Shown: piece by piece, positions 14,936 through 34,303 of the stretch
How the letters are laid out: each line of letters begins with the position of its first letter
How positions within the stretch are numbered: position 1 is the stretch's first letter
Origin: Eledone cirrhosa
Lineage: Eukaryota
Length of the DNA: 64,000 bases
Assembly (NCBI GenBank): GCA_964016885.1
Contig: OZ024747.1
Location: forward strand, 65,658,001-65,722,000
Reading direction: 5' to 3'
Notes under the pieces: generated by a model
What the model saw: the letters and a program-made list of their open reading frames with translations, nothing else
Told to the model about the DNA's origin: nothing
The model's database searches: none
Made by a program: the position numbers and the translations under genes

Positions 14936-15889
14936 TATCTGTCAGACGAAGAGCGTCTATGTATCTATGTAAGGTCCTGACGCCACCAATACATCCACCA
15001 CACCACCAAAAACGCCGCTACCATAGACAAAGGCGCCACTACCACACGCCAGCCCGTCTACAGACAGTTCACTAACCTCACACCACAACCCATCCCACTA
15101 AATAACCTTAACCACCACCATATCTTCACATCCACACCAACATACTCGACACGCCAAGGCCAACCCACCACCACACCACAGCCCACCTCATCCACAGACC
15201 GTCACCAACATCTCACCATCACACCCACCCCCCATATACACTACAGGCCAGTACATCGCCTTGATCCTTCTCACCAATCAAAACATCTCATTTTGTCAAA
15301 CTCTTGAAACTCTGACTTTACCACATAGCATGTATTTCATTTTCTTATAGCATTTTAAGAGGGTCCGTCGAGCTGCCGATTATTGAGTCGGGTAGGATCG
15401 ATATAGATCGAACCTTGAGCTGATCAGTGGCGAAACGCGCGTCAAATATCAATAAATGCAATGAAGGAATAATCAACACTACAACTACCATCATGAAAAT
15501 TGCCAATGGTGTCAGAAAATATATATATCTCTGTATTGAGTATGAGGGGTGGGGGAGATTACGGCTGTCATCTCATTTTCTTTCATCAAGGCTAAGTCAT
15601 GTCGGGTTTGAAAACGTAATTCAAATGATGGCGGTGGTAGCGAGTGTTGTTGGTGTGGTGGTTTGGTGGCGGTGTGGTGTCGTAGTGGTGGCGTAGTGGT
15701 GGTGAAATATAAACCACGTGGAGTGGAACAAATATAATGAAATAAATAAATATATATATACAAATACATACATACATACACACATACATACATACATACA
15801 TACATACATACATACATACACACACACACATACATACACACATACACACATACATGTAGGTGATCTCTTTCTCTTAATTTCGAATATAT

Positions 15890-17035
15890 TTTTTGACCGG
15901 TCACCTTCCTGGTGGCAAGGTTGTAAAAGAAAAGAAATTGTCATCCCTTGAATCGCAAGAATGTTTTGCAAATTTTGAAGGTGCCAACTATCGCAGCCAC
16001 TTGTAGACTGAATTAGGGAGCTGCGCTCTTTGTCAGCAAATCCAAGTTCAGTCATACTTTGGTCCAAGCGGGTTGGTATATAACCCGTAGCTCCAATAAT
16101 GATGGGTATGAAGCTAAAGGTGTATTTTGGATACTGGATTTGTAAACTCCTCATCAATGGTCCGGAGATGTCCTCCTCCTGTATTTTTCTGACAACGTTT
16201 ACATCAAGTGGGCAGCTGATCTCCACAACACAACACGTTTTCAATGGGTGGTCCCAAACAACAATATCAGGCCGGTTGTGCTTTAATTTGGTGGCAGTTT
16301 TTATTTTCAGGTTCCACCAGTATTCCTTAGTGCCATCTGTCTCGATATATTCTTCCTCGTTTGTTGTTAATTTTGTTTTCCAAAGTGCGTTCCAGATGGT
16401 TCTAGCTATCCCATCGTGTCTCATGGGGAGGTAGTAGCGAGATGACATTCTTTCGCAGCTGGCAACAATGTCGCTTACATCTTCAATCTTTGTTTTACAT
16501 AAGCCTACGTTTATTGTCAGCTGATGGCCCTCCTCTTTTGTGCAGCAGATATTTGGTAGGGAGTTCTTGTTACTGTATTGCATAGAGATATCCCTCAAGG
16601 TGTCATGTCATAAACTTGTCGGAACTCCATGCCAGGCTTTTTGAGTGGTTTATCACCTCTATGGTCTGTGTTTTACGTCTCAAGTATACGTGCACAACTT
16701 TTTCTGTAAATTGGTCAATTTTTTCATCTTTGAACAGTGAATAGGATCTTCCGATTTCTCTGGGTGAGAGATTTATATCAGGCTTTATTCCATATCTCTC
16801 CTCCAGATCAGTGGCTATCCTAATGATATTTTTTTTTTCATGCTCATAAACCTGGGCCATAAAACTTTTCCTCTGTTGAAGATGTTGCTTCAGTGTTACT
16901 ATCCGGGTGTCATATGATGTTAATATGGATTTTAGACCCCGGCCACCTTCCTTGCATGACAAGTACAGCCTATCCACATAACCAAAGTTCCCAGTAACAC
17001 TGACAAGTTTTCGAGTTCTAACATCTATCTCTCTT
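15890..17035 (-). mobile_element. RLE-type non-LTR retrotransposon (R4/Dong-like) 3' fragment
   Basis: RLYL...EGGRGLKSI, a degenerate CCHC knuckle (LCK...IVASC), RHD.IAR, restriction-like endonuclease NRPDIVVWD...VVEISCPLD and FIPIIIGATG; frameshifted. Confidence 0.9.
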
Positions 17036-17100
17036 AAGTATGTGATATTTACATCTCAAATGATATATATATACAGGGTGTTTCCAAAAATGTGTAAAGT

Positions 17101-18697: not shown

Positions 18698-19860
18698 CTA
18701 GCAGTTTAGCCCGGCGTTACTCGGGTTTGTTCATTTGCTATGAAAAGTTACATACAGGTAAACGTAGCTTGAAAGCGCATAATCTTATCAATTAAGTGCA
18801 TAAAGCAGTTGAACCGGTTATTAATAGTTACAAACCAATTAGCATTTTGGACAATCAATGATGGCTTAATAATCTTCCAATAGCGAATTTAGTAGAACAA
18901 AGTTGCAAGATGGTGGCCCTGGTGCCGCTGCGTGTCAGATCTGTCCGCTATGGGTGACCCAACCAGTTTTCCAGACGGCATAACTCAAACATCTATAGCA
19001 CTTCATAGTAGACGATATTGCGTGTCATCCCTTGAGGAGTGTAAGCAAAAAGTCCATTCCTGCTCCATACGCGGAAACTGGCAACAAAGTTGGCCATGGG
19101 AGAAGCATGGCTCCCCCAAATGGATGACCGCCACCAACAATGTTTGCCCTTGTGACTTGTTAATGGACTTGGAAAAAAAAAAAAATGGTCTCACCGGGAA
19201 TTGGGATCGCCGGAAATCGAACGGGATATCTGACGCCGAGAGGCAAAGGTTCATCCTTGGAATGAAAACATTCTCCCCTCTCCAGCACCCCGTTACAATG
19301 GTGGCCTCAATCAAGTGCAGCGTCAGTGACTTGACGACCATGCGAGTACCGTTGCACTGCTTTGGTGGACGCAAGTTCCTTATTAGCATAATGGGACAGC
19401 CAACCCTAAGCTTAAGAATAAGAGGTGGGAGCCCTGGGGAATTTAATAACTCAACCGGATAATTAACGATATCGTCGGGGTCTGACGCCAGGTCGATAGA
19501 TTTGAAGATGTCTTCTTTACCGGGAATCTTCTCAATCAGCTGCTCGTTAATAAAATTAACCATGGTATTTTTCCGAGCAAGGATGGCTCTTTCGCTGAGC
19601 TAATCGAGGTTTTTAAAGTTAGATGAGACATTAGAAAAAACTGCTTCCAAAAGGTCAGAAGGGCTGCTCACAATGTTGCACAGGGAGTCGATTGCTATTC
19701 CGCCTTTGTCATCCGCAGGGACCTTGCCCTCACAAAGTGCTAAAATATTCTGACCAAATGCTGCAGACATGTCACCATGCAAATGAGCACGCATATTTGT
19801 GCTCAAGTACAAACTCTTCACCTGGAGCCACAACATGGACGACTTAAGGCAGGCAGGCAC
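18698..19860 (-). mobile_element. Helitron 3' portion with Pif1-family helicase C-terminal remnant
   Basis: 3' CTAG at 18698 with hairpin cccggcgttactcggg. Protein motifs: LSTNMRA, GLPPLILKLRVGCPIMLIRNL...CNGTR, VFIPRM, RRSQFPVR, INKSQGQTL and FSHGQL. Confidence 0.9.
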
Positions 19861-26340: not shown

Positions 26341-26349
26341 CGGAGAAGG

Positions 26350-27230
26350 AAACTATGAATAAAATGGCAAGCTGTGTGGTTGCATTTAAGTATAATGAAA
26401 AGAAAAGTTATGGGCAAAAGAGGGCAATATCCATCGTCAGTTGTCTGCTAGGAATCATAGGCATTTCTTCGCGTTAGAGACAAGATGCCTCAACCTAGGG
26501 CGAACAATAACTAAAATAAGTTATTGGAATAAAAAAAGGGGGAGAGAGAAAAATGGATACACACATGAAGGGTGAAGAAACGAAAAGAGGAAAAATCAAG
26601 TCAACAACTCATTTTGAACATAAGTTCTGGTGGGTTTAACGAGAAAAAAAAATACATGTCTTCACTGTAGCAGTGTGAGTGAGAGAAGAGACTGCTTTAG
26701 AAGTGGCAGGTTAGCCGAGAGAAGGTGACTAGCAGAAGAGGGAGAAGGGGGAGAGAGAGCATAGCAACAAGGGGATAGAAGAGAGATGGGTCACAACTGA
26801 GAAGAAAACTATGTGAATAAAATGGCAAGCTGTGTGGTTGCATTGAAATATAATCAAAATAAAAGTTACGGGCAAAAGAGGGCAATATCCATCGTCAGTT
26901 GTCTGCTAGGAATCATAGGCATTTCTTCGCGTTAGAGACAAGATGCCTCAACCTAGGGCGAACAATAACTAAAATAAGTTATTGGGATAAAAAAGAGGGG
27001 AGAGAGAGAGAAAAATATAAACAGACACAAAGGCTGAAGCAACAAAAAGAAAGGAAAAAAAAAAAAAAAAAAAAAAAAAAAATCGAGTGAACAATTGATT
27101 TCGAACACAAGTTCTGGCGGGTTTGATAAGAAAAAAAGACACATTCACTGTAGAAGTGTGAGCAAGAGAAGAGACAGTTACGGACGAGGAAGGAAGTGAG
27201 CTAGCGGAGGAGTGAGTGAAAATAAGAGAA
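26350..27230 (+). repeat. Tandem duplication of a ~458-bp unit
   Basis: An essentially identical ~115-bp core, gggcaaaagagggcaatatcc...aaataagttattgg, at ~26412 and ~26870, with more diverged flanks. Confidence 0.85.
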
Positions 27231-27984: not shown

Positions 27985-28425
27985 GTGAGATGCGCGATGC
28001 TGCATGGTAGTGAGACATGGACAGCAACTGCAGAGGGTATGCGATGGCTGGAGAGAAAGGAAGCAAGCACGCTCCGTTGGATGTGCAATGTCAATGTGCG
28101 GGAACGACCAAGCATAAACGAGTTGAGAGAGAAACTGTGTTTAAGAGGGATAAGTTGTGGTGTGCAAGAGAGGACTGAGATGGTATGGACATGTGATGCG
28201 CATGGAGGTTGAGCGCTGGGTAAAGAAGGGAGACGCAGTAGAGGAAGACCACGAAAAACATGGGTGGAGGTGGTGAGAGCCGACTTCAGATCGCTGAAAC
28301 TCACCAAGGAGATGACGAAGGACCGTGACAAGTGAAGAGATGCTTTGCTCAAGAGGACCTGTCCCACCCTTTCAAGCAGGGAAAAGCGGACGTAAAATGA
28401 TGAACAGACGATGATAATGATGCTC
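27985..28425 (+). mobile_element. RTE 3' end (LHGSETW...GRRSRGRPRKTW, ATG-repeat tail); recurs in each unit (e.g. 31690-32130)
   Basis: Protein motifs of the RTE ORF2 C-terminus; tail aaatgatgaacagacgatgataatgatg. Confidence 0.9.
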
Positions 28426-28486
28426 TCTATATATCTATCTCTCTATCAATCTATCCAGATATCTGTGCATCAGTCTATCTATTTAC

Positions 28487-28745
28487 CTGCACTTCTCACT
28501 CCGTCTCAGGATCACCGAGACATCACCAACAACCAACCCACGCTGTGGGAAACAGTCCTCCCCGGGGCACACCCTGGTACTTCACACCATCTGTCTGTCT
28601 CGCTGCCTAACTACCGAGAAATCCGGCTTCTGTGCTTGCCTAATTTGTAGGTTATTAGGCAGTTGGCAGGTTTGCGGAAGTTGGTTTTGCAAATGGTTAA
28701 AACACTTGCATCACGAAATTCAAATAGCATCACTCCTTGTTTTAT
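28487..28745 (-). mobile_element. Inverted, diverged copy of the RTE APE segment (left arm of the long inverted repeat); one per unit
   Basis: The reverse complement aligns to 29010-29271 at ~79% identity (hand alignment). Confidence 0.9.
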
Positions 28746-28746
28746 C

Positions 28747-28865
28747 TTTCTCGTCTTTACCTAGGCCTGCATAAGTTAGTGTTACGGTTAGTGTTACTGT
28801 TAGCGTTACGGCTAGTTTTAGGGTTAATTGAGAGCAAGAAACTGCTGCTAGGTAAAGACAAGAAA
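28747..28865. mobile_element. MITE-like element: 18-bp TIR around degenerate (GTTAGG)-like repeats; one per unit
   Basis: tttctcgtctttacctag ... ctaggtaaagacaagaaa (1 mismatch), with internal gttagtgttacggttagtgttactgttagcgttacgg. Confidence 0.6.
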
Positions 28866-28869
28866 TTCT

Positions 28870-29830
28870 GCATTTACAAGCAATTTTTACAAACAGCCAC
28901 AATGACAGGACGGAGACATCGTTATGCTAGCAGGGGATTTCAATGGTCATGTTGGACAGCTCTACGATGGTTACACTGAGGTACATGTTGGGCACACTTA
29001 CGGCTTAAGAAATGAAGCAGTGAAACTTCTTGAATTTTGCGATGCAATTGCACTAACCATCTACAACACTAACTTACACAAATCTGCCAACCACCTAATA
29101 ACCTACAAATCAGGCAAGCACATAAGCCAGATTGACTTCTTGCTAGTTAGGCAGCGGGACAGGCAGATGGTGTCAAATACAAAGGCATACCCCGGGGAAG
29201 AATGTACCCCACAGCATAGGTTAGTCGTTAGTGATATCTCATTAAGCAAGAGACTGAATGAGACATACAGGAAGGTGTGGAAAAAAGAAAGGTCTGGAAG
29301 CTAAAAGAGCTCTCACTAAAATACAAATTTAGGAAAGCCCTTCAATATGTGTATGATGAAAAAGAAGACGATTTAGAGTCGTACAACATAGATGATAACT
29401 GGAATTTCTTATGCGATACCTTACTGCAGGTTACTGATGAAACTTGTGGCTGGATCAGAGTTCCAACCAGACAGAGAGTGACATGGTGGTGGGACAGCAC
29501 GGTAGATCGGGCCATTGGAGACTAAAGACTAGCATGGAATGCTTGCAAAATTAGTGCGAGTAGAGAAGAATATACAGCCGCTAAGAGAGAAGCTAGACGT
29601 CAGGTGTACTTAGCATGCAAGGAGGCTGCTCGACGACGTGCGCTGTTCCGTACTGCAAGGCAGTGTGTCAGTGAAAATCGGGATTAAGTCTGTCCGCAAT
29701 GATGCCGCTGTACTTTGTGTCACGAATGAGTGTTGATGAGTAGAAAAGAGGACAAAACTCTATTCCGTCAGGGAAATGGCCATGTTCGATATGCAGAAAC
29801 GGAACTGGCATAAATTATATAAAACGTACA
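28870..29830 (+). mobile_element. RTE APE endonuclease plus linker fragment, fused to a post-RT Cys-rich piece; one per unit
   Basis: LAGDFNGHVG, SQIDFLLVR, CTPQHRLVVSD and TWWWDS; 29730-29830 encodes ...SGKWPCSICR; frameshifts and stops are present. Confidence 0.92.
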
Positions 29831-29982
29831 CAAAAGATCGAGTGCGATAGCAGGCACGTAGTGGGATAGCAGGCAAACTAACAGCATATTTTGATTATAA
29901 TAAAACAAATAATAATAGTAATAATAATAATAATAATCGTCATTGTTCTTTTCTTCTGTGCCTTTCTTTGCCTTCTCTGTCA

Positions 29983-30599
29983 TCTGAATAACAAAAATAA
30001 AAGAAAAAAAGAATCTTAAACATATGTTGCCTTTACAAAGTGCTGTGATCAAAGTAGCTTTTAAGCAATTTCCTAACTAACAAACAACATCAACAAAATA
30101 TATACAAATATCTTTGAATGTCAAGTCCACCAAGAGAAAATAGTCATAATGTACTTACAGATACAATGCTAGGGACTCGCATCAATGAGTTTTAGTAGAA
30201 AATGACTGACTGACTGTTGAGGGACAGAGGTGTGTTTTCAAATATTTATCAATTCACAACAAAGCCTCACAAAGCTACATCATAATGCAAACTCACAACA
30301 CCCTTCTTATGCAACCTCACCAAGCAACCCCACAACACAACCTCACGTTCACAATTCACAACACTCAACAAGGCATTCGTTATCTAGGGTTTACAGTAAA
30401 CATAGCGAGGTAAAACACACCCAGTACACTCTGTAAAGTGGTCATTAGGTTAAGATTAAACTGAAATCATACCTCCATTGTCGTTGGCGTATATTTTCTC
30501 TAAAACTTAATTTCATTGCTTTCATTTCTCTTCTTTTTCTTCTATTCCATCTAAATATGAAAAAAATTATACAGGTCATTTCGTCTTATCAAGAGGTCC

Positions 30600-30635
<36 letters not shown>

Positions 30636-30720
30636 GAGATAATACCTTAAAATAATGGTAAAAAAAGTGTTTAATTACGAAAATCCTTTGAAATAACTTC
30701 CTCGCTCTTACTGGTCATAC
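29983..30720 (-). other. Cluster of candidate non-coding exons (30646-30720, 30473-30550, 30159-30213, and one starting at 29983); one set per unit
   Basis: Acceptors: ctctaac...tgttttgtgttttgcag, tttttttcatatttag, cctctgtccctcaacag and tttttttcttttatttttgttattcag. Donors: AAG|GTATTA, GAG|GTATGA and TCT|GTAAGT. They alternate correctly, all on the minus strand. Confidence 0.5.
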
Positions 30721-30899
30721 CTGCAAAACACAAAACACTAGCGTTAGAGTGAACAGTGCAGTGCAGTGCAGTGCAGTGCAGTGTAGTGTAGTGTAATTTA
30801 GTATGGTGCAGTTTAGTGGCACAGTACACTGTAAAACATTTAGCCAATCTCTCAGACATTTACAAATCTTTCAAGATATATATATATATATATATATAT

Positions 30900-31405
30900 A
30901 TGGGAGAGAGAGAAATTACCCTCAGTAGATCAGACAGAGGGACCAGCTATTGAGATTAACGAATATAGGGTCCAAGAGGCGATTAAGGAAATGAAAAATG
31001 GTGAGGCTGCTGGACCATCGGAGATAGTTGCTGAGATGCTGAAGGCCTCAGGGGACGTAGGCACTAAACTGGTTGCACACATCATCAATCAGGCTATATA
31101 TGGCAGTGTCATACCCAAAGACTAGTGCAAAAGTAAAGGGGACGCTCTTGAGAGGAGAAATTATAGGGATATAAAACTGATGGATCAGGTTATGAAAGTG
31201 GCAGAAAGGATATTAGCACAACTAATTAGAGAAAGGGTCAAACTAGATGAGATGCAGTTTGGTTTTGTGCCTGGGAATAGTACAACAGATGCCCTCTTCT
31301 TGATGAGACAATTACAAGAGAGGTTCTTAGAGAAAAATAAGCCACTATACTTAGCCTTTGTTGACCTAGAGAAGGCCTTTGATAGGGTACGCCGATCTGT
31401 CATCT
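30900..31405 (+). mobile_element. RTE RT N-terminal fragment; one per unit
   Basis: GEAAGPSEIVAEMLKASG, MQFGFVPGNSTTDA and RQLQE...LYLAFVDLEKAFDRV; truncated before YADD. Confidence 0.93.
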
Positions 31406-31409
31406 TATT

Positions 31410-31565
31410 ATTTAACCTATAAATGGGGCCCCAACAGGTACTACTACACCAGGCCAGAGCAGACCTGGGAGTTATGACAACTAAGGGGGTAACTCCACGT
31501 TCCCCACAGTTCCTCCTGAACTTGAGCCTTGCCACTGGATGTAGTTTAATGTCATACCCAGGACA
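31410..31565 (-). mobile_element. Antisense insertion of an RTE-type 5'UTR fragment (same family as 22310-22462); one per unit
   Basis: Highly similar to 22310-22462 (ccagagcagacctgggagttatgacaactaagggg...ggatgtagtttaatgtcatacccaggaca). Confidence 0.8.
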
Positions 31566-31600
31566 AATATATACATACATATATATATATATATATACAT

Positions 31601-31643
<43 letters not shown>

Positions 31644-34303
31644 TACAAATATATATATGCGTACGAAAGTGTGGTTACATGATGCCTATGCGAGATGTGC
31701 GACCCTGCATGGTAGTGAGACATGGACAGCAACTGCAGAGGGTATGCGATGGCTGGAGAGAAAGGAAGCAAGCACGCTCCGTTGGATGTGCAATGTCAAT
31801 GTGCGGGAACGACCAAGCATAAACGAGTTGAGAGAGAAACTGTGTTTAAGAGGGATAAGTTGTGGTGTGCAAGAGAGGACTGAGATGGTATGGACATGTG
31901 ATGCGCATGGAGGTTGAGCGCTGGGTAAAGAAGGGAGACGCAGTAGAGGAAGACCACGAAAAACATGGGCGGAGGTGGTGAGAGCCGACTTCAGATCGCT
32001 GAAACTCACCAAGGAGATGACGAAGGACCGTGACAAGTGAAGAGATGCTTTGCTCAAGAGGACCTGTCCCACCCTTTCAAGCAGGGAAAAGCGGACGTAA
32101 AATGATGAACAGACGATGATAATGATGCTCTCTATATATCTATCTCTCTATCAATCTATCCAGATATCTGTGCATCAGTCTATCTATTTACCTGCACTTC
32201 TCACTCCGTCTCAGGATCACCGAGACATCACCAACAACCAACCCACGCTGTGGGAAACAGTCCTCCCCGGGGCACACCCTGGTACTTCACACCATCTGTC
32301 TGTCTCGCTGCCTAACTACCGAGAAATCCGGCTTCTGTGCTTGCCTAATTTGTAGGTTATTAGGCAGTTGGCAGGTTTGCGGAAGTTGGTTTTGCAAATG
32401 GTTAAAACACTTGCATCACGAAATTCAAATAGCATCACTCCTTGTTTTATCTTTCTCGTCTTTACCTAGGCCTGCATAAGTTAGTGTTACGGTTAGTGTT
32501 ACTGTTAGCGTTACGGCTAGTTTTAGGGTTAATTGAGAGCAAGAAACTGCTGCTAGGTAAAGACAAGAAATTCTGCATTTACAAGCAATTTTTACAAACA
32601 GCCACAATGACAGGACGGAGACATCGTTATGCTAGCAGGGGATTTCAATGGTCATGTTGGACAGCTCTACGATGGTTACACTGAGGTACATGTTGGGCAC
32701 ACTTACGGCTTAAGAAATGAAGCAGTGAAACTTCTTGAATTTTGCGATGCAATTGCACTAACCATCTACAACACTAACTTACACAAATCTGCCAACCACC
32801 TAATAACCTACAAATCAGGCAAGCACATAAGCCAGATTGACTTCTTGCTAGTTAGGCAGCGGGACAGGCAGATGGTGTCAAATACAAAGGCATACCCCGG
32901 GGAAGAATGTACCCCACAGCATAGGTTAGTCGTTAGTGATATCTCATTAAGCAAGAGACTGAATGAGACATACAGGAAGGTGTGGAAAAAAGAAAGGTCT
33001 GGAAGCTAAAAGAGCTCTCACTAAAATACAAATTTAGGAAAGCCCTTCAATATGTGTATGATGAAAAAGAAGACGATTTAGAGTCGTACAACATAGATGA
33101 TAACTGGAATTTCTTATGCGATACCTTACTGCAGGTTACTGATGAAACTTGTGGCTGGATCAGAGTTCCAACCAGACAGAGAGTGACATGGTGGTGGGAC
33201 AGCACGGTAGATCGGGCCATTGGAGACTAAAGACTAGCATGGAATGCTTGCAAAATTAGTGCGAGTAGAGAAGAATATACAGCCGCTAAGAGAGAAGCTA
33301 GACGTCAGGTGTACTTAGCATGCAAGGAGGCTGCTCGACGACGTGCGCTGTTCCGTACTGCAAGGCAGTGTGTCAGTGAAAATCGGGATTAAGTCTGTCC
33401 GCAATGATGCCGCTGTACTTTGTGTCACGAATGAGTGTTGATGAGTAGAAAAGAGGACAAAACTCTATTCCGTCAGGGAAATGGCCATGTTCGATATGCA
33501 GAAACGGAACTGGCATAAATTATATAAAACGTACACAAAAGATCGAGTGCGATAGCAGGCACGTAGTGGGATAGCAGGCAAACTAACAGCATATTTTGAT
33601 TATAATAAAACAAATAATAATAGTAATAATAATAATAATAATCGTCATTGTTCTTTTCTTCTGTGCCTTTCTTTGCCTTCTCTGTCATCTGAATAACAAA
33701 AATAAAAGAAAAAAAGAATCTTAAACATATGTTGCCTTTACAAAGTGCTGTGATCAAAGTAGCTTTTAAGCAATTTCCTAACTAACAAACAACATCAACA
33801 AAATATATACAAATATCTTTGAATGTCAAGTCCACCAAGAGAAAATAGTCATAATGTACTTACAGATACAATGCTAGGGACTCGCATCAATGAGTTTTAG
33901 TAGAAAATGACTGACTGACTGTTGAGGGACAGAGGTGTGTTTTCAAATATTTATCAATTCACAACAAAGCCTCACAAAGCTACATCATAATGCAAACTCA
34001 CAACACCCTTCTTATGCAACCTCACCAAGCAACCCCACAACACAACCTCACGTTCACAATTCACAACACTCAACAAGGCATTCGTTATCTAGGGTTTACA
34101 GTAAACATAGCGAGGTAAAACACACCCAGTACACTCTGTAAAGTGGTCATTAGGTTAAGATTAAACTGAAATCATACCTCCATTGTCGTTGGCGTATATT
34201 TTCTCTAAAACTTAATTTCATTGCTTTCATTTCTCTTCTTTTTCTTCTATTCCATCTAAATATGAAAAAAATTATACAGGTCATTTCGTCTTATCAAGAG
34301 GTC

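Follow-up and report, generated by a model that had tools for sequence, protein, structure and literature searches.

ADAR edits long double-stranded RNA (dsRNA), and the inosine that results is copied as G. Such A-to-I editing is usually regarded as non-heritable. Hypermutated retroviral and RNA-virus genomes do carry ADAR-type A>G changes that are passed on by replication or reverse transcription, but they are not host germline repeats, unlike the sequence described here. LINE reverse transcription runs from the 3' end of its template and often truncates. A further kind of strand asymmetry is seen in the hairpin RNAs of Drosophila, which derive from long inverted repeats with strand-asymmetric, G-U-biased stems. 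In hairpin RNAs under selection, G-U changes are expected on both arms and from both types of transition, which is not what we find.

Footprints of APOBEC 'DNA editing' are fixed in vertebrate LTR retrotransposons (PMC4866542, PMC2873906). As summarised in those reports, they resemble the present case in being deaminase marks acquired in the course of retrotransposition that are strand-biased, clustered, context-dependent, fixed in the germline and recognized by polarisation against the family. They differ in that the APOBEC changes are G>A, made on the cDNA of vertebrate LTR elements, whereas here the changes are A>G in an ADAR context, in a mollusc non-LTR element and apparently over several rounds. 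The APOBEC screen, as outlined in PMC4866542, was filtered for G>A and not for A>G, and invertebrates served as a negative control and were depleted.

The other close parallel is RNA-level ADAR hyper-editing, which produces dense A>G clusters in inverted-repeat dsRNA with a 5' U or A favoured and a 5' G disfavoured, and which targets mainly repeats outside the nervous system. It normally appears as differences between RNA and DNA, whereas in the present case genomic DNA itself carries the pattern, restricted to a single arm. RNA-level editing directed at repeats is known in cephalopods, and the account in PMC9068888 proposes an anti-retrotransposon role and describes it as unexplored. Finally, the copies discussed below resemble the 5'-truncated, twin-primed LINE retrocopies set out in PMC12016303, both in their 5' truncation and, in one case, in an internal 5' inversion with a small gap. 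Unlike those retrocopies, they end in microsatellites, and their template would have been a composite non-coding hairpin RNA. No description of ADAR footprints fixed in the genome within LINEs emerged from a literature search of limited coverage, and earlier accounts may exist. What appears unusual here is the multi-round history combined with the one-armed pattern.

The locus is an inverted repeat in the window (the whole 64,000-nt stretch of Eledone cirrhosa DNA analysed here), in which one arm has accumulated A>G changes on one strand. Judged from the sequence, the left-arm pattern is a genomically fixed footprint of ADAR hyper-editing. With a probability of roughly three in four, the left arm is a LINE fragment whose strand-specific A>G changes would be the fossil of an ADAR hyper-edited RNA, copied by LINE reverse transcriptase into germline DNA.

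Architecture and setting of the repeat unit

The inverted repeat belongs to a 3.70-kb macrosatellite unit arranged in tandem on the plus strand from 27987 to 64000. Ten units lie in the window and 13 in the array, which extends to ~C7:65.733 Mb. An earlier sequence-only reading of this DNA gave ten start positions for the repeat, all of which are correct; as the units are 99.5-99.8% identical, they constitute one observation, not ten. Unit-length variants of ~3.35, 3.64 and 3.70 kb are found at other chromosome ends.

The unit opens with an RTE-type LINE 3' end bearing an (ATG)n tail (27985-28438, plus strand), and an ATCT-rich degenerate microsatellite common to all paralogues (28423-28485) separates this tail from the left arm. 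The left arm is a LINE endonuclease fragment with its sense on the minus strand (28486-28741, the repeat itself reaching 28743). It is followed by the 5'-most piece of the left element (28744-28770, minus strand; 2581-2608 of the reference copy L101), which, read by eye from the printed sequences, abuts the arm where ~150 nt were deleted internally. The spacer (28771-28826, plus strand) is a 12-nt minisatellite formed by a decayed (TTAGGG)n tract, clearest in paralogue L134, and its G-rich strand is directed away from the present telomere. The 5'-truncated right LINE element occupies 28848-29729 on the plus strand; within it, 29010-29271 pairs with the left arm of the window and 29010-29585 with the long ancestral arm described below. 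Beyond it lie rearranged reverse-transcriptase pieces of the plus-strand LINE (29729-29884 and 30900-31405) with intervening repeats (29729-31405 overall, plus strand). The plus-strand LINE at 28848-31691 is internally reordered, running through family positions 2588-3519, 4447-4604, 3577-4106 and 4841-5318.

Both arms are endonuclease fragments of a single LINE family that has intact members in this genome. These intact relatives contain one open frame of 1024-1045 residues with an endonuclease and a reverse transcriptase; Pfam returns RVT_1 at E 3e-10, with Exo_endo_phos_2 below its cut-off. We take the family to belong to the RTE clade on account of its single frame and microsatellite tail. 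The best named homologue of the right-arm frame is an Octopus bimaculoides protein (55% identity), and active RTE LINEs are described in Octopus in the account of PMC9115989. The family is abundant, a single degenerate motif matching 2173 times in the genome with satellite copies counted. Identity to family copies is 87-91% for the right arm and 75-78% for the left. The 5' ends of the arms face each other across the decayed (TTAGGG)n and lie within ~50 nt of one another in family coordinates, where the left arm falls wholly inside the span of the right element. The arms have most subfamily alleles in common, several of them rare, and differ at five subfamily-polymorphic sites. Because of these five differences, the arms are probably two insertions, and the first round of editing could have had another partner. 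Near 29555, a derived allele is common to the left arms of paralogues L111 and L132-L134 and to right arms of the window type, and is not found in the right arms of L132-L134, a distribution that hints at conversion between arms.

The setting is subtelomeric. The left-arm motif has 270 matches in the 3.0-Gb genome, and among the matches listed many arrays lie 45-100 kb from contig ends; contigs C13 and C19 start with telomere repeats. In the end-proximal arrays checked for strand (C5, C6, C7, C8, C9, C10, C13, C18 and C19), the minus strand of the window runs telomere-ward. The segment adjoining the window on its left (C7:65648001-65658000) contains 1400 CCCTAA, so the window array is also subtelomeric in character though internal to C7. 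This telomere tract sits at an internal position in the 93.95-Mb contig and is a relic of chromosome fusion or else a join made in scaffolding. Comparable points may be marked by the other internal arrays, at C5:9.6 Mb, at C11:32.8 and 35.2 Mb, and at C12:43.4 Mb. A flanking block of up to ~11 kb is common to chromosome ends, and within it an older direct duplication of ~360 nt (82-87% identical) lies at 26343-27175. Elsewhere in the window, 19003-19596 on the minus strand encodes a Pif1 helicase 2B domain (Pfam PF21530, E 1.8e-10), probably a Helitron remnant. Open frames at 15621-17055, also on the minus strand, resemble the C-terminal part of another non-LTR element, and the 328-aa frame among them has no Pfam match.

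A strand-specific A>G footprint in the left arm

The sequence-only reading had counted the differences between the reverse complement of 28487-28712 and 29041-29271 by hand. Our count reproduces it exactly, with 19 G/A, 8 T/C, 2 A/G and 3 C/T differences, 16 transversions and one 4-nt gap. A pairwise alignment of the full arms (28486-28743 and 29010-29271) has 201 identical columns out of 258, with G/A differences skewed 20:2 and T/C 10:4. As had been argued, symmetric decay does not account for such a skew (binomial p = 1.1e-4 for 27:5 and 7e-5 for 30:6 over the full arms). Read on the minus strand, 30 of the 57 mismatches become G-U pairs; for the plus strand the number is 6. The fold-energy comparison then suggested likewise favours the minus strand, by 64 kcal/mol (−409.8 versus −345.7 kcal/mol); the corresponding energies for the hairpin of paralogue L133 are −839 and −669. 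This asymmetry follows from the fact that an A-U pair hit by A>G becomes G-U in minus-strand RNA, whereas in plus-strand RNA the same change yields a C-A mismatch. Assembly error is not the source of the A>G sites, since a 169-nt contig from run X4 (contig kind unrecorded) matches 28375-28543 with zero differences.

We polarised the differences against 30 near-intact family copies, leaving out six ambiguous columns. The left arm carries 40 derived changes (A>G 18/83, T>C 3/53, C>T 6/56 and G>A 0/56), and the right arm 11 in 258, with no skew. A second set of 30 copies yields 22 A>G changes in the left arm and at most 3 per family copy. None of the 60 copies in the two sets has the G-rich state, which refutes the subfamily difference that had been named as a possible cause; the subfamily alleles common to the arms also argue against it. 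CpG decay, the other explanation then raised, fails as well, as the skew persists once CA/TG contexts are set aside (A>G 12/55, T>C 2/40, p = 0.037). The adjoining LINE 3' end, which serves as a regional control, shows neither A>G nor T>C skew in the window or in any paralogue.

The changes are clustered and depend on context. The segment 28486-28597 (minus-strand sense) holds 15 changes among 37 ancestral A, distributed by 5' neighbour as T 7/9, A 4/7, C 4/12 and G 0/9, a depletion of 5' G with p = 0.005. A preference for 5' U and A over G is reported for ADAR across metazoans in the portions of PMC9989829 and PMC2873906 that deal with it. The 5' G depletion has p < 0.02 in six of seven left arms and p = 0.057 in the whole arm of the window, the arms being related and the tests not independent. 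In the form given in PMC9989829, hyper-editing is called when A>G affects more than 5% of positions and makes up more than 60% of all mismatches. By these thresholds the paralogue L111 (79 of 118 changes) and the window cluster (15 of 23) both qualify, and the whole arm of the window (18 of 40) would fail by itself. A>G without matching T>C is seen in both, at 79/160 versus 3/87 in L111 and at the window counts given above. The A>G changes break residues kept in intact frames, for example a His-Arg pair.

The excess of C>T in the earlier count does not hold up as part of this pattern. It is present in the short arm of the window (6/56 versus G>A 0/56, p = 0.027) and absent from the long paralogous left arms, where C>T numbers 5-10 and G>A 5-12. 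Two of the seven C>T sites in the window arm are CA>TG, which we read as an edit followed by CpG decay.

Older paralogues and probable layers of editing

The solitary match L111 (C1:115.06 Mb) is a longer version of the left arm. Here A>G affects 79 of 160 positions and T>C 3 of 87 (p = 1.5e-15), while 57 family copies have at most 3/161 A>G over the same span. By 5' neighbour, the changes fall at T 23/30 (77%), A 28/50 (56%), C 15/32 (47%) and G 13/48 (27%), and by 3' neighbour at G 32/54, C 13/27, A 24/52 and T 10/27, in the order that ADAR's weak preference for a 3' G would give. All codon positions are affected (29/59, 24/58 and 26/43). A search with L111 identified five more paralogues among 40 scored matches. 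In all six of these older paralogues (L111 and L132-L136) the left arm is longer than in the window, and 35-59% of its A have become G.

Three of them, L132, L133 and L134, retain the whole hairpin of ~570 bp. The left arm of the window is thus what remains of a 570-nt arm after this lineage lost the distal 310 nt by a deletion at 28486. In the intact hairpins, the left arms carry 64-69 A>G changes among 182-191 A, whereas their right arms have 2-4 T>C of 115-116 (2-6 of 115-116 across four right arms). Editing is therefore not on both strands of the duplex: in L133, the right arm has 3/115 in antisense against 69/191 for the left arm. The editing profile is low at both arm ends and high mid-arm (4/48 versus 65/143 in L133, p = 1.4e-6), as expected if the duplex was the arm itself.

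The remaining three paralogues, L111, L135 and L136, lack the right arm and are 5'-truncated inside the left arm. They end in (CATA)n or (TA)n microsatellites, with no clean target-site duplication or poly(A) recognizable by eye. A core of 55 edits is common to the lineage (L111 50/55, L135 41/46, L136 23/27, window 14/14). Extra G residues occur where the three intact long arms all have A, at 16/78 sites in L111, 15/56 in L135, 7/35 in L136 and 1/54 in the window. Among private changes, A>G makes up 12/24 in L111 and 3/56 in the intact hairpins (p = 1.2e-5); the corresponding figure for L136, 8/18, pools two slightly different definitions. These extra private changes in the truncated copies point to additional cycles in which RNA was edited and reverse-transcribed.

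In a tree built from the unedited flank, L111 is nested with L133, L132 and the window (support 100/99), so the extra edits of L111 are most simply gains. In the same tree L134 falls outside with weak support, and support for where L134, L135 and L136 are placed is weak (79/87). L135 and L136 are basal, and some of their private G could be ancestral. An 8-nt deletion common to L134 and L136 conflicts with the flank tree, and the private counts may be distorted by conversion between copies or between arms.

L136 also contains an inverted 69-nt segment that carries left-arm markers (family positions 2820-2896, attached to ~2915), located at what would be the 5' end of the RNA. A 5' inversion is described as the twin-priming hallmark of target-primed reverse transcription in PMC12016303's account. 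The match suggests that the template was the minus-strand RNA.

Proposed origin of the edited arm

We propose that a telomere-ward transcript, from the minus strand of the window, would fold the two arms into the ~570-bp hairpin, which ADAR would then edit. Reverse transcription would begin on the 3' side, copy the left (3') arm and usually halt before the loop. Such cDNAs, inserted elsewhere, would have given rise to L111, L135 and L136, each adding a new layer of edits. At the parent locus, an early cDNA may have replaced the left arm by recombination, placing an edited arm beside an unedited one; this is the least certain step, with about even odds. The low-ended editing profile and matched 5' ends favour such cDNA conversion of the parent locus, whereas the five allele differences and two edited copies from outside the lineage, L142 and L149, leave room for insertion of an already edited fragment. 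Subtelomeric duplication at the DNA level would later have spread the block, which would have gone on to lose 310 nt of the arm and to be amplified as a macrosatellite. That a telomere-ward germline hairpin RNA was repeatedly ADAR-edited and LINE-reverse-transcribed, including cDNA conversion of its own locus, is a tentative reconstruction that we place somewhat below even odds. Against the hairpin account as a whole, ADAR should edit both strands, and the unedited right arm requires an assumed truncated cDNA plus recombination. The experiments described in PMC5224506 reportedly showed no ADAR1 editing of L1 RNA in HeLa cells. The sequence-only reading had linked the skew to long-term transcription of the minus strand; the skew does point to a minus-strand RNA, but slow transcription-coupled asymmetry as its cause is unsupported. 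Twin priming was considered as the origin of the whole hairpin and rejected, as both cDNAs would carry the same edits and the overlaps reported are short (median 12 bp in the data set of PMC12016303).

An ordinary LINE mRNA fragment could instead have been ADAR-edited with antisense RNA from elsewhere and inserted de novo beside a same-subfamily copy, the hairpin arising by chance. We regard this as doubtful, though a substantial contender; the judgement covers the first-round history and not the involvement of ADAR, and a chance hairpin would explain only the later rounds. L142 (C13:28.27 Mb; A>G 42 versus T>C 5 over ~2 kb) and L149 (C12:18.27 Mb; 46 versus 4 over ~2 kb) lend it weight, as both are 5'-G-depleted, unrelated to the hairpin lineage and edited without an inverted partner being seen (for L149, none within the 3.3-kb locus). 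These two copies were ascertained with an edited query and show existence only. The five polymorphic sites at which the arms differ and the abundance of the family fit de novo insertion too, and no cDNA recombination is required. Yet editing in L142 and L149 is patchy, at 0-23% per 150 nt, and weaker than the 35-59% that extends over whole long arms. Also against de novo insertion are the drop of the profile at both duplex ends, the coincidence of the two 5' ends to within ~50 nt with the left arm wholly inside the span of the right element, and the lack in the arm of a LINE 3' end at which priming could start.

Adenine might also have been deaminated in DNA, either by ADAR acting on the DNA of an RNA:DNA hybrid between nascent right-arm RNA and the displaced left-arm strand, or by a tRNA deaminase acting on hairpin DNA. 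ADAR is active on RNA:DNA hybrids, and such a process would directly explain why only the second-transcribed arm is changed. There is also a precedent in metazoan ADAT2/3, for which A-to-I activity on DNA hairpins is reported in the account of PMC10354150. We nevertheless consider deamination of DNA improbable. Intact hairpins should keep mutating, yet only 3 of their 56 private changes are A>G, and the extra edits occur in copies that lost the partner arm, one of which (L136) bears a retrotransposition hallmark. Moreover, ADAT reportedly prefers loops and GAA sites, but the changes here fall in the stem and disfavour a 5' G.

A functional hairpin RNA under selection, in which G-U-keeping changes are tolerated and others purged, was the interpretation first attached to this repeat. 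The 30:6 excess of G-U pairs on the minus strand and its better folding agree with it, as do the four right arms, in which T>C plus G>A (9-13) outnumber A>G plus C>T (5-7). Selection on pairing would, however, act on both arms and admit C>T too. The excess consists of A>G alone, on one arm alone, clustered and with the ADAR neighbour bias, and selection on pairing predicts no neighbour bias; T>C in the right arms is in line with transversions, and the long left arms lack a C>T excess. The arm has, in addition, taken 10-28 transversions per copy and a 310-nt deletion. A selected hairpin is thus highly improbable.

Ordinary causes (a G-rich subfamily, misread CpG decay, transcription-coupled asymmetry, GC-biased conversion or TpA hypermutation of duplex DNA) are the least probable of all, for although 7 of 19 A>G changes in the window arm are in a CA context and one set of family copies has a little more A>G (30/2700) than T>C (14/1620), all codon positions are affected, residues of intact frames are broken, and the adjacent LINE 3' end, the right arm and an unbiased grid of family fragments (A>G 6.4%, T>C 8.0%) are unskewed. 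TpA hypermutation fails on its own terms, as TA>TG numbers 16-26 and TA>CA 0-2 in the five long arms counted, so this is not a duplex process. APOBEC DNA editing, which would appear as sense-strand G>A, was rejected because polarisation gives A as ancestral and G as derived.

Under the ADAR reading, the footprint is most likely a neutral by-product and not a selected RNA. If the tentative multi-round reconstruction is true, A-to-I editing would act as a recurrent, heritable mutagen directed by sequence, with layers that a tree of copies could date, and LINE insertions scarred by ADAR would form a measurable class across the genome. A genome-fixed footprint implies that editing reached germline LINE RNA and survived reverse transcription, and would offer a record of how ADAR acted in the past, and in which contexts, that can be read from DNA alone. 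The share of LINE insertions inactivated by editing would then become testable from assemblies alone. Such fossils mimic selected G-U hairpins, and could pass for RNA editing if reads mis-map among the 270 copies.

Across the genome, LINE copies with ADAR-type A>G clusters exist but are uncommon. A degenerate pattern for independently triple-edited copies, with the satellite excluded, has 0 genome matches against 2173 for the looser motif, so heavy editing at that exact site is rare outside the hairpin lineage. The unbiased grid, which covered 54 stretches of 10 kb, contained 14 family fragments (18.6 kb aligned, too small for a frequency); none was flagged, and they showed no strand skew. Among 360 fragments from outside the grid, 48 were flagged for A>G, 46 of them left-arm paralogues, against 1 for G>A, 0 for T>C and 0 for C>T. 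The single fragment flagged for a G>A cluster, at 492-1808 of locus L147, carries 31 G>A and 6 A>G changes.
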